Shown here piece by piece: positions 7,911 through 30,614 of a DNA stretch of 30,614 nucleotides. A program made the translations under genes and the position numbers. Under the pieces are notes generated by a model. It did not search any database. It was given only the letters and a program-made list of their open reading frames with translations, and was not told the origin of the DNA. The stretch comes from a virus (Duplodnaviria; Caudoviricetes). The stretch spans positions 1-30,614 of the IMG/VR virus record IMGVR_UViG_3300020044_007958. One strand, 5' to 3'. Numbering within the stretch: position 1 is the stretch's first letter; each line of letters begins with the position of its first letter.

Positions 7911-8309
7911 ATGGAATATAATTTAAAGAGTAAAAAAGATTATGAAGCATGGCAAATTGATATGCAAGATACTATGCAACTGTATAAAATCGGATTGATT
8001 GACCAATCAAATATAATTATTTATCCCGATTGTAGAATTTATCAATTTGTAAGCAATGTTATGATTTTTTCGCATACGGATTTTAAAGATAAAAGCGAAA
8101 ATGTGTATATTCGCGACTTATACATTTTGCCACCTTACAGAGGTAAATCAGGAGGTAAACATTTTTTAAACTACATCGAAAAAAACGCAAAAACATTTAA
8201 TAAAAAAACGATTACCGTAGAGCCTTTTTTATGGTCGGCTGACTTTTTTAAAAAGCATGGTTTTGAGTATATCAATGAAAAAGTAATGGAAAAAAAATTA
8301 AAACAATGA
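7911..8309 (+). CDS. GNAT-family acetyltransferase
   Basis: YIRDLYILPPYRGKSGG (motif A) and ADFFKKHGF (motif B). Confidence 0.85.
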   Translation: MEYNLKSKKDYEAWQIDMQDTMQLYKIGLIDQSNIIIYPDCRIYQFVSNVMIFSHTDFKDKSENVYIRDLYILPPYRGKSGGKHFLNYIEKNAKTFNKKTITVEPFLWSADFFKKHGFEYINEKVMEKKLKQ

Positions 8310-14945: not shown

Positions 14946-14979
14946 AGAGGGGTGGGGTGTAATGCTTCACCCTTTTTTT
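14946..14979 (+). terminator. Intrinsic terminator after the capsid gene
   Basis: GGGTGGGGTG-TAA-TGCTTCACCC stem followed by T7. Confidence 0.75.
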
Positions 14980-14991
14980 ATACTTAAAATT

Positions 14992-15816
14992 ATGAAGAAA
15001 CTTGTATTTATTATTGCTATCTATCAAAGGCACGATTTGACTAAGATAGTGCTAGATTATTATCGGAAGCTAAGTAAGAAGTACGGCTTTACGGTTGTTA
15101 TTGCTGGAAGTGAGGGGCAGATAAGTAAGGATTTAGCAAAAGGATTGGTGTACATTGAAACCGAAAACAATCCGTTAACGGCGAAAAATAATGCAATGAT
15201 GTTGAAAGCAAAGGAGTTTAATCCCGATGCGGTGGTGTTACTAGGTAGCGACGATTTAATTTGCGAAAATGTAATACGTTGGTACTACTCACTAGATACC
15301 AATAAAGTAATGGGATTTACTGATATTTACTTCTATTCAACACAACATAAAATTACAAGCCATTTAACACTAGATAAACATTTCGGAGCTGGTAGGTATT
15401 ACCCGAAAAGTGTACTTGATAAATGTAAATGGAAAGCGTGGAACGGTAAGATTAACAAAGGTTGTGACAATAACAGCGAAAAGTATTTACGTGGCTTAGA
15501 CGTAGAATTTGAGCGGATACCATTAGATAAAATCAATGGTTTTTTAATTGATATAAAGCACGATTATAATATTTCGAGTAAAAATATTATCTTTGTAGGA
15601 AACCAAATTAATAATGAAATTATGGCAAAGAAATTAAATAAAGAAGTAGCTACAAAAGTAGAAAATTTAACATTTACACCGAAAGCGGTTAAAAGTGATA
15701 AAATAAAGTTTGTTGGTAATGGCAAAGAAGCAACATTAGGCACTAAAACTTTTTACATAGATAAATTAAAAGCTGAGGTATTTGTTAAAAAAGGGTGGGG
15801 GGAAATATGCGAATAG
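14992..15816 (+). CDS. GT-A/family 2-like glycosyltransferase with an extra basic C-terminal module
   Basis: FIIAIYQR, LTAKNN and LLGSDD motifs. The track start at 14962 lies inside the terminator, so 14992 is preferred. Confidence 0.8.
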   Translation: MKKLVFIIAIYQRHDLTKIVLDYYRKLSKKYGFTVVIAGSEGQISKDLAKGLVYIETENNPLTAKNNAMMLKAKEFNPDAVVLLGSDDLICENVIRWYYSLDTNKVMGFTDIYFYSTQHKITSHLTLDKHFGAGRYYPKSVLDKCKWKAWNGKINKGCDNNSEKYLRGLDVEFERIPLDKINGFLIDIKHDYNISSKNIIFVGNQINNEIMAKKLNKEVATKVENLTFTPKAVKSDKIKFVGNGKEATLGTKTFYIDKLKAEVFVKKGWGEICE

Positions 15817-27374: not shown

Positions 27375-27504
27375 TAGTAACTTTGAACGCGTGGCTTATA
27401 TTGTTTTAATGGGTATATTTTTCTACCTATTTGCAGTTAAATGCACCGCGAAAAAGATTGATTTAAAAAATAAACCTAACTACCCTTATTATATCGAAAA
27501 ATGA
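27364..27504 (+). CDS. Small membrane or lipoprotein candidate (46 aa), not in the ORF track
   Basis: MKHNSNFERVAYIVLMGIFFYLFAVKCTAKK...; overlaps both neighbours (ATGA coupling at its end). Confidence 0.65.
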   Translation: MKHNSNFERVAYIVLMGIFFYLFAVKCTAKKIDLKNKPNYPYYIEK

Positions 27505-27917
27505 AAACAGCCAAACAAATAGCTATTGCGGAACTTTTGGAGCAAATCGAATTTTATGATTTAGATTATATTCAAGAGCGTTTGATTATGGAAGCAATTT
27601 GGTCGGATGAATGGGACATGGTGGAGCAATACGACGGTTGTACAAGTGTGCCCGAATTTCACATTAATAAATATATTTTCGATTGTTTTGTACATGATTT
27701 TCATTGGCAAAGCGGACGCGGTGGAAAAGTATCTGATAAAATTTTTTATAGCTTAATGATAGCGCGTGGATTTCCAAAGTTCAAAGCAAAAAAAAGATAT
27801 TACGGTGTTCGTTTAGCGTGGAATTTATGGTACAAATGGAAGCACAAGAAAAAAAATAATATTCGACCGCTTACTTTAGGCATGAAAAATTGGTTAAAGA
27901 ATAATAAAAATTATTAG
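27501..27917 (+). CDS. DUF1353/phospholipase A2-like protein
   Basis: YDGCT, CFVHD, SDKIFY and YYGVR motifs. Confidence 0.6.
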   Translation: MKTAKQIAIAELLEQIEFYDLDYIQERLIMEAIWSDEWDMVEQYDGCTSVPEFHINKYIFDCFVHDFHWQSGRGGKVSDKIFYSLMIARGFPKFKAKKRYYGVRLAWNLWYKWKHKKKNNIRPLTLGMKNWLKNNKNY

Positions 27918-27927
27918 TTTTGTATAC

Positions 27928-28254
27928 ATGAACGAGATAAACGACTTTACGAAATTAATCCTTAATGAGCTGGAGCGAAATCGAACTAGCGTAGAAAATT
28001 TAAAAATAAATTTAGATAAAAAATTTGACGATTTGCAACGTGAAATTGTTAAAATTCAAACAGCAGAAAAAGATTTGCACGAATTAAAACTTTGGTATAA
28101 AGAAGTGACTGATACATGGAGCGCAAAGCAGATGAAAGAAGCTAAAGACGAGATTTATGAGCAGAAAAATAAATGGTCTAAGGCAATCGGTTTATTAATC
28201 GCAATTGAAATAATAGTAGGCTTTCTAATTTCGTGGATATTAAAGAAATTTTAA
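27928..28254 (+). CDS. Coiled-coil protein with a C-terminal transmembrane helix (XhlA-like lysis accessory)
   Basis: Heptad-rich body followed by AIGLLIAIEIIVGFLISWIL. Confidence 0.7.
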   Translation: MNEINDFTKLILNELERNRTSVENLKINLDKKFDDLQREIVKIQTAEKDLHELKLWYKEVTDTWSAKQMKEAKDEIYEQKNKWSKAIGLLIAIEIIVGFLISWILKKF

Positions 28255-28255
28255 A

Positions 28256-28654
28256 ATGGAAACGTTTAAAAAATTTGAAGATATTAAAATCCTAAGTGAA
28301 AAAATATCGAATATTTTTAAGCAAAACGAATTGCTAAAAATGGCAATTAATACAAGCCATGAGGGTATTGCAATTTTGAACAAAAAAGGCGAATACATTT
28401 ATCTTAATGAAGCACACGCGGAAATGTTTGGTTATACCGTAGATGAGTTAATTGGTAAAACTTGGCAAATTTTATATAAAGAAAAAGATGTTGAATACTT
28501 TGTAAATGAAGTATTCCCAATTATAGAGCAGAATGGCAAATGGTCAGGTAAATATATTGGTTACGCTAAAAATGGAAATCCAGTAAATGAAGAAGTATAT
28601 TTAACATCTTTACCAAACGGTGGTTTAGTATGCACTTGTAGAATAATAATTTAA
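28256..28654 (+). CDS. Stand-alone PAS domain protein
   Basis: EGIAILNKKGEYIYLNEAHAEMFGYTVDELIGK S-box; W.G...KNG..V.L PAC segment. Confidence 0.9.
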   Translation: METFKKFEDIKILSEKISNIFKQNELLKMAINTSHEGIAILNKKGEYIYLNEAHAEMFGYTVDELIGKTWQILYKEKDVEYFVNEVFPIIEQNGKWSGKYIGYAKNGNPVNEEVYLTSLPNGGLVCTCRIII

Positions 28655-28665
28655 AAATAAATAAA

Positions 28666-28938
28666 ATGTTAAAAAAATTTCTATTTAAAATTAACCCAAT
28701 CGAGGTTATAAAAGCATTAAAAAAAAGTGATACTAATATAATGGTAAAAGGAGTTACCCAAATGGGTGGCGGTGGAGTGTTGATTACTTCGGGTATTACC
28801 TTAATTACAGATGGAGCAATTAACAAAAGTTGGTACGAAATAGTAGGAGGTTGTGCCCTTATAATTGCTGGGGTTTACATTACTAAGAATTTAACTGATA
28901 AAATCGAGAAAATAAAAGAAGATGAAACTAACAGCTAA
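28666..28938 (+). CDS. Putative holin
   Basis: 90 aa with two hydrophobic segments and a charged C-terminus; overlaps the endolysin gene. Confidence 0.6.
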   Translation: MLKKFLFKINPIEVIKALKKSDTNIMVKGVTQMGGGGVLITSGITLITDGAINKSWYEIVGGCALIIAGVYITKNLTDKIEKIKEDETNS

Positions 28939-29368
28939 TTTTTCTTTAAAGGAGTTCATAGAGGGCGAAATGCCTAAGGAAGCTATAAAAATGAACTATG
29001 ATTTATTAACGGATGAACAGCAAAAAAATATCGGCTTAATTGCTATTGAATTGCAGAAATTGCGAGATAAAACTAAAGCAGAATTTGGTTCAAAATTTAC
29101 AGGCTTTAAAATTACCTCAGGTTTACGACAAAAAGAGTGGGAATTAAAGCAAAAAAGATCAGGAAATAGCCAACACGTTAAAGGCTGGGCGGTTGACTTT
29201 CAGCCTATTTGTGCTAAAGAAGATTATTTAATCATTTTCTACTGGGTATTTAAGCAACTTGAAAACTTTAATGGAGGTGTAGCGCAAAAAAAACCCAACT
29301 TAAAAGCTGGGTTAAAAGGTTTTATTCATTTTGATTTGCGCGGTGTTCGTGCCCGTTGGGAATATTAA
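28922..29368 (+). CDS. Endolysin, peptidase M15 family
   Basis: NFSLKEF, ITSGLR, SQH..G.AVD and FIHFD zinc-binding motifs. Confidence 0.9.
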   Translation: MKLTANFSLKEFIEGEMPKEAIKMNYDLLTDEQQKNIGLIAIELQKLRDKTKAEFGSKFTGFKITSGLRQKEWELKQKRSGNSQHVKGWAVDFQPICAKEDYLIIFYWVFKQLENFNGGVAQKKPNLKAGLKGFIHFDLRGVRARWEY

Positions 29369-30493: not shown

Positions 30494-30499
30494 TTATTT
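30432..30499. repeat. attC-like site (short)
   Basis: ATATAAC-A-GCAACTTAGCGAA-N19-TTCGCCAAGTTGC-AAAAC-GTTATTT; arms match at 12/13. Confidence 0.75.
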
Positions 30500-30614
30500 C
30501 CTCTTCAACACCCCCTCCAAATCAACACTATCAAGCACCGCATCGAGTTTATCTATTAAAGCATCTGTAACCTCGTCTGTTAACGTGTTACGCATTGATT
30601 TTTCAATCCTACCT
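30494..30614. repeat. Terminal direct repeat, copy 2
   Basis: Identical to 1-121. Confidence 0.95.

Follow-up and report, generated by a model that had tools for sequence, protein, structure and literature searches.

Apart from T4 lysis inhibition, which reads its cue outside the cytoplasm, holin timing is regarded as set by the holin allele. Lysis inhibition in T4 involves the holin T, the cytoplasmic antiholin RIII and the periplasmic RI (PMC12162936; PMC8385771; PMC11413866), and RIII is reported to bind the cytoplasmic helix of T (PMC12162936). Small membrane proteins acting with holins are also on record: XhlA of Bacillus PBSX (PF10779) is predicted to act with the holin XhlB (PMC5589764), and 1-TM regulators are reported to activate 2-TM lysis proteins (bioRxiv 10.64898/2026.08.27.747656). 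Vibriophage VP882 encodes a PAS sensor with an influence on lysis, VqmA-Phage, a PAS-containing, DNA-binding transcription factor of the lysis-lysogeny switch (PMC8284805); it is, however, not a stand-alone PAS protein in a late lysis cassette. A literature search covering titles and the starts of abstracts returned no study of a PAS protein in a lysis cassette. Here we describe a PAS gene and a membrane-anchored coiled-coil gene, hereafter ccTM, that by sequence comparison form a real, conserved and previously undescribed two-gene module, for which a role in lysis timing is plausible.

The window, that is, the whole stretch of DNA that was analysed (30,614 nt), carries an exact 121-bp repeat at both ends (1-121 and 30494-30614) and therefore represents a complete, circularly permuted phage genome of ~30.5 kb. 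Its GC content is 29-38%. On the + strand, terminase, portal, capsid, tape-measure and tail genes can be recognised by eye, followed by four genes at 27928-29368:

27928..28254, + strand: ccTM, 108 aa; residues 1-86 form a predicted cytoplasmic helical/coiled-coil rod, with a C-terminal TM at 87-105; XhlA-like layout.
28256..28654, + strand: stand-alone PAS protein, 132 aa; N-terminal helix 2-32 and one complete PAS domain, with no output domain and no TM.
28268..28312, + strand: N-terminal helix motif of the PAS protein (residues 5-19), a candidate docking helix from PSSM searches in both directions and a weak hhalign match.
28666..28938, + strand: moderately hydrophobic protein of 90 aa, a holin candidate by position only.
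28922..29368, + strand: Peptidase M15-type endolysin, 148 aa (phrog_894, Pfam).

The ORF coordinates place ccTM 1 bp before the PAS gene and the PAS gene 11 bp before the 90-aa gene, both as given in a first-pass annotation made from the sequence alone, and the 90-aa and endolysin genes overlap by 17 bp. That annotation had set the PAS domain between a membrane-anchored coiled-coil gene and a holin-endolysin pair. The former was borne out: ccTM has a single hydrophobic segment, at its C-terminus (mean hydropathy 2.61). As to the latter, the endolysin stands, with a match to the endolysin family phrog_894 at 1.9e-15 and one to Pfam Peptidase_M15_3 at 3.5e-4, under the cut-off of that family. 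The holin label is tentative: neither Pfam nor PHROGs matched the 90-aa protein to a holin family, its best 19-residue hydropathy is only 1.52, and its position before the endolysin fits a holin. A promoter and terminator scan returned signals at chance level.

XhlA consists of an N-terminal coil and a C-terminal TM. ccTM likewise has a soluble N-terminal coil, a single C-terminal TM and a lysis-cassette position, with distant members of its family located among head genes. Like XhlA and BhlA-type partners, it is a small lysis-cassette membrane protein near an endolysin and, here, a holin candidate. PF10779 did not match the window's ccTM, and was found for 0 of 28 ccTM members among the 25 families listed of 39. 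The likeness has further limits: the host of ccTM is of Gram-negative type, and the available text of PMC5589764 describes no PAS-like partner of XhlA. Against PHROGs, ccTM gave a weak match to the holin family phrog_689 (E 0.013) and a shorter form of the protein matched phrog_1193 'hemolysin' (E 0.004); XhlA accounts for 22% in one neighbour cluster of the Atlas. Mycobacteriophage LysF1b/LysA2b also features an elongated helical single-TM protein that works with a 2-TM protein and may be encoded apart from the endolysin, but there the TM is N-terminal (N-out/C-in), with a charged C-terminal helix and no PAS partner. We rejected ccTM as a LysF1b-type 1-TM regulator, since its TM is C-terminal and its topology the reverse.

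The PAS protein matches Pfam PAS_9 (E 1e-11; 45.4 bits, cut-off 27) and PAS (42.5, cut-off 22.6). Its AlphaFold model (pLDDT 95) consists of a helix at residues 2-32 and a five-strand PAS fold ending at residue 130, with the five-stranded antiparallel sheet and flanking helices of the PAS superfamily. The best solved structures in Foldseek are the PAS domains 3lyx, 2r78 and NifL 2gj3 (3lyx E 1.6e-8, TM 0.76-0.83). The protein had been read as a short helix plus one complete PAS domain; the domain is as proposed, and the helix, at 31 residues, is longer than "short" implies. The stop at CTCRIII was confirmed: all 27 aligned cellular relatives run on as RD(I/V/N/T) past the last strand. The N-terminal helix follows a heptad spacing that puts Asn24 in the core, which suggests that the protein dimerises through this helix.

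Four pocket-type residues (H54, W70, Y74 and C126) are invariant in the phage PAS family and retained by most cellular kin, and the protein carries no recognised ligand motif. LOV photoreceptors are marked by a GxNCRFLQ motif with a photoactive Cys; we discarded this assignment, as the motif is absent, W70 occupies the Cys position and the only cysteines are 126 and 128. Likeness to the heme and FAD sensors FixL/DosP and NifL is generic only, and a PAS Pfam family does not predict the cofactor (PMC10468136). By eye, two alphaproteobacterial kinases with the same PAS subfamily (L086, L088) lie downstream of H-NOX/HNOB-like genes, which may hint at the signal of the subfamily.

A PAS profile matched 93 loci, window included (L013 had no match), of which 75 hold a PAS ORF of <200 aa and 18 are long cellular proteins. 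Of 68 candidates from a search restricted to lengths of 72-231 aa, 63 were scored as homologues; that the protein stands alone follows from the short ORFs seen in the DNA loci. A profile search of 1.84 billion representatives was dominated by multi-PAS cellular proteins, with three short ones among the best 150 (P0045, P0107 and the tandem P0102). The Atlas returned generic PAS clusters only and PHROGs no match for the PAS protein. Searching 50,697 GenBank phage records by tblastn with the PAS, ccTM and 90-aa proteins gave no match, and thus no cultured member of the PAS clade was found. Output-less PAS proteins do lie beside endolysin genes in cultured Bacteroidota phages, namely Cellulophaga phage phi14:2 (gp089, AGO48967) and Chryseobacterium phage MA9V-2 (gp249), and are annotated in GenBank as membrane-anchored PAS proteins; beyond annotation, our literature search found no functional study of either. 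These are, however, PAS_4-type and not detectably related to this clade (hhalign 0.5%), and in gp089 a hydrophobic N-terminus, a coil and the PAS domain are fused in one chain. BFVD also matched R9ZZL0 and S0A2B2, uncharacterised proteins with a PAS-like predicted fold from the cultured Cellulophaga phages phi19:1 and phi18:3.

In a tree of 22 phage and 27 cellular PAS domains, the phage sequences make up one side of a branch (99/98) that adjoins Chitinophagaceae-type hybrid kinases; among cellular sequences, the N-terminal PAS of such a kinase comes closest (51% identity over 101 aa). These kinases (L095, L064, L080) share the PAS subfamily and its H/W/Y/FP/C core with the phage protein, but the cellular form is a 742-aa PAS-PAS-HisKA-HATPase-REC protein lacking the phage N-terminal motif. 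From this nearest relative, and because contig L094, which carries the same cassette with a PAS 88% identical to ours, was binned in a Bacteroidota MAG, we infer a Bacteroidota host for the window phage. The phage PAS clade is under purifying selection, with dN/dS of 0.04-0.28 in the 22 of 25 pairs for which dS could be estimated, similar to ccTM; the decay in homologues that would have spoken against a function was not seen.

The pairing of PAS and ccTM is tight. ccTM adjoins PAS in 65 of the 75 short-PAS loci (55 upstream, 10 downstream). Where each flank reaches 250 bp or more, it does so in 53 of 55 loci and for 41 of 42 distinct PAS sequences; these counts include near-duplicate loci and four neighbours added by hand. 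Six of the ten remaining loci are cut by contig ends, and four (L051, L054, L055, L061; three distinct proteins) appear to lack ccTM and have no lysis gene in view. These four look like large-phage loci (for instance L054:3950-4360), and in three of them the PAS gene lies, by eye, 3' of a tRNA-like sequence and 5' of a GNAT-like gene. Of the two partners first suggested for the PAS protein, holin or coiled-coil protein, the latter is thus the likely one; the 90-aa gene occurs without PAS in 8 of 9 viral loci. The ten downstream ccTM copies are of a shorter 67-73-aa form, whose N-terminal helix is common to both forms (hhalign 96%, E 4.8e-9).

Junctions in 39 PAS/ccTM pairs range from -8 to +3 bp (+3, +1, 0, -1, -4, -8) in mixed frames, which fits translational coupling of genes that are not fused. 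A programmed +1 frameshift at the TTT-TAA junction, which would fuse ccTM to PAS, is ruled out by these varied gaps. Distances between PAS proteins correlate with those between their ccTM partners (Mantel rho 0.52, p 0.0002, 21 pairs), and the two trees have three main groups in common, with one swap (L033/L034) indicating that partners can be exchanged; since neighbouring genes are co-inherited, such agreement is no proof of contact. A complex prediction with two PAS copies and ccTM 1-84 scored 0.01 against a mark of 0.32, which speaks neither for nor against binding. The window's capsid protein is present in 5 of 10 viral records tested, yet two complete records of 63 and 70 kb without it carry a PAS 95-96% identical to ours, indicating that the pair moves as a unit. 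PAS and ccTM are thus a conserved, mobile two-gene unit that travels between unrelated phage backbones. In one relative, the capsid-protein match has one internal TAA (G004:C1:771-2045).

A recurring linkage of PAS with lysis genes emerged from the synteny survey that the first-pass annotation had proposed: an endolysin gene lies within 1.5 kb of PAS in 21 of the 29 loci whose flanks span 1 kb or more (14 of 21 distinct PAS), and including DUF5675 genes raises this to 24 of 29. Five endolysin types alternate beside the pair (Amidase_2, Amidase_3, M15_3, M15_4 and phrog_894), and GTA-type holin genes lie near some PAS loci. The nine viral loci with the window's 90-aa gene include one with the PAS/ccTM pair and eight without. 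In all eight, the place of the pair is taken by a hydrophobic ORF of 60-64 aa, and the flanks are 76-95% identical to those of pair-bearing loci; the pair is therefore optional and exchanges with a small membrane-protein gene immediately before the holin candidate. Elsewhere, a small membrane-protein gene directly follows ccTM (L163, L189). In the T4-like L041 (3634-5682), ccTM is accompanied by a PAS of this clade, a second, PAS_3-type gene and a convergent amidase with a peptidoglycan-binding domain, with a PhoH gene upstream.

The wider ccTM family offers a different setting. A ccTM profile matched 167 viral loci, of which 80 were kept: 7 with this PAS, 2 at a contig edge, 63 with only a 67-92-aa helical protein directly upstream, 1 with both a helical protein and PAS, 2 with other PAS genes and 5 with no partner. 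Of the 71 distant loci, which include all 63 with the PAS-less partner only and the 5 partnerless ones, 68 sit in a T4-like portal to prohead-protease cluster, on contigs of up to 370 kb. Nine residues are invariant in the family alignment (W64, S65, M69, E75, Y77, Q79, K80, W83 and G88). The PAS-less helical protein adjoins ccTM in all 80 loci kept of 83. It was modelled as three helices, had no match in Pfam or PHROGs, and returned nothing under E 0.001 in a fold search. At L183:2742-3312 and 79 similar loci of large T4-like phages, the two genes are inserted with portal-side genes on one flank and prohead-protease genes on the other. At least three other PAS types also occur beside ccTM: PAS_4-like (L165, L195), PAS_3-like (L041, L195) and another in L171. 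In the tandem protein P0102, this clade's PAS is joined to a second PAS that is 30% identical to that of L171. No longer, fused ccTM forms were seen among 7,997 candidates, which is weak evidence.

PAS proteins and PAS-less partners share a motif at their N-terminus. On a PSSM built from that of the helical partners, 54 distinct PAS proteins have a median of 0.7, against -14.9 for 139 neighbouring gene families. The window PAS scores 0.5, the second PAS of L041 scores highest, 14 cellular relatives reach at most -0.1, and two of five other PAS proteins (L165, L171) fall under the background 95th percentile. With the reverse PSSM, from PAS residues 5-19, 30 of 30 helical partners exceed the 95th percentile of the background, 28 of them in one and the same register (median 11.6 versus -10.9 for background, and -0.3 to -5.9 for the partners' other helices and the ccTM coil); the rows of these PSSMs are related and the counts hence not independent. 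The shared helix is only ~15-18 residues long, and hhalign aligns the same segment weakly (P 0.003-0.007, probability 5-11%). Among 2,387 ORFs, a whole-protein HMM of the PAS-less partner gave one N-helix match below E 0.01, the second PAS of L041. Judging by these profiles, the motif is likely a docking helix for ccTM. In L156:2687-2965, a helical partner carries it twice in tandem.

We propose that PAS and ccTM form a holin-accessory module with an optional sensor that shifts lysis time, a reading to which we give a little less than an even chance. A PAS ligand, sensing and an effect on lysis timing are presumed in it. As a tail-anchored protein of the inner membrane, ccTM would extend its helical rod into the cytoplasm, where PAS, dimerised through its helix, would dock on the N-terminal helix of the rod, the one portion that long and short ccTM forms have in common. 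A small molecule or the redox state of the host would set the PAS pocket (H54, W70, Y74, C126) and thereby alter the grip on ccTM, and the changed grip could modify ccTM assembly or its action on a neighbouring membrane protein and so shift lysis time. The helix would then be the docking module and could carry exchangeable payloads, be it this PAS, one of another subfamily, a tandem PAS or just two plain helices. By analogy, the proposed arrangement resembles T/RIII, in which a soluble cytoplasmic protein binds a single-pass membrane lysis protein at its N-terminal helix and lysis time responds to a cue. T differs in that its C-terminal domain is periplasmic and the cue, superinfecting DNA, is perceived outside the cytoplasm, whereas ccTM ends at its TM and a cytoplasmic PAS serves as the putative sensor. 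No link between the two systems was found in sequence or fold.

Several observations count against the holin-accessory reading. Nearly all distant ccTM loci lie among head genes, outside an evident lysis cassette; the window's holin is not identified with confidence; four PAS loci have neither ccTM nor a lysis gene; and the shared helix is short, with low hhalign probabilities and a modest score for the window copy. Two alternatives are serious rivals, their evidence being the head-cluster position and the PAS-less partners. PAS/ccTM could be a membrane-tethered late module unrelated to hole formation (a head-assembly anchor, superinfection exclusion or counter-defence) that small phages have parked in a late, exchange-prone lysis slot, which is unlikely but carries appreciable weight. 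The portal to prohead-protease location of 68 of 71 distant loci speaks for it, as do the lack of a significant holin match for ccTM and a pair in L040 that lies between portal and head protease, though an M15 gene is close by. It fits poorly with the sister loci, in 8 of 8 of which a small hydrophobic gene immediately ahead of the holin candidate stands in for the pair, with the endolysin beside the pair even in the T4-like L041, and with the small membrane-protein genes just after ccTM in L163 and L189. PAS domains often work through protein contact alone, and the helix-bearing protein could be a constitutive antiholin or chaperone that restrains or folds ccTM, the PAS being a soluble dimerisation scaffold with nothing sensed. 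This we regard as rather unlikely. The three-helix protein holds the partner's place in 64 of 80 ccTM loci, so that the pair can do without a PAS; the recurrence beside ccTM of several unrelated PAS subfamilies, of tandem genes (L041, L195) and of the PAS-PAS protein P0102 nevertheless goes beyond the needs of a scaffold, and the polar core residues H54 and C126 are invariant.

The first-pass annotation had also suggested a dominant-negative decoy, in which PAS hetero-dimerises with a host hybrid histidine kinase or sequesters its ligand and so reprogrammes host signalling. Its kinship with a Chitinophagaceae kinase PAS and the four loci without ccTM are in keeping with this, but the decoy leaves unexplained the pairing with ccTM in 53 of 55 loci and the phage-specific N-terminal motif missing from cellular kin, and both the late-operon position and the existence of one old clade, in place of repeated fresh captures of the host's own PAS, make it improbable. 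Least probable is that PAS is a functionless kinase fragment hitch-hiking with ccTM: sister phages do manage without the pair, but the dN/dS values, like those of its neighbours, largely refute a passenger, frames stay intact at divergence to about 40% identity and order swaps preserve the pair.

If the holin-accessory reading is true, phages of slow-growing aquatic hosts could time their burst to conditions through a cytoplasmic sensor coupled to a membrane protein of the lysis cassette, with effects on burst size and carbon turnover. A broader proposal, possible but doubtful, is that aquatic phages infecting hosts of Bacteroidota type share a plug-in system, across a size range of 30-kb siphoviruses to T4-like giants of >300 kb. 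In it, a membrane rod would offer a socket for any protein with one N-terminal docking helix, this helix having been fused to several PAS sensors captured separately or to a plain helical blocker, and burst time would be set by the state of the host cytoplasm. The module comprises two small genes, and natural controls exist in the form of the PAS-less partner, the other PAS subfamilies and the sister cassettes whose slot holds a plain hydrophobic gene; the lysis-timing question is therefore directly testable by reconstitution.

Some further genes of the window deserve mention. No integrase is evident by eye among its ORFs. A GNAT acetyltransferase (7911-8309, Pfam 4e-7) lies between replication and helicase genes, and a 284-aa gene 3' of the capsid gene (14962-15816) looks glycosyltransferase-like by eye and has no Pfam or PHROG match. 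Immediately 5' of ccTM, a DUF1353-like gene (27501-27917; phrog_1158, E 2.5e-6) belongs to a family that PHROGs labels tail assembly chaperone and that recurs in 17 lysis-region loci.
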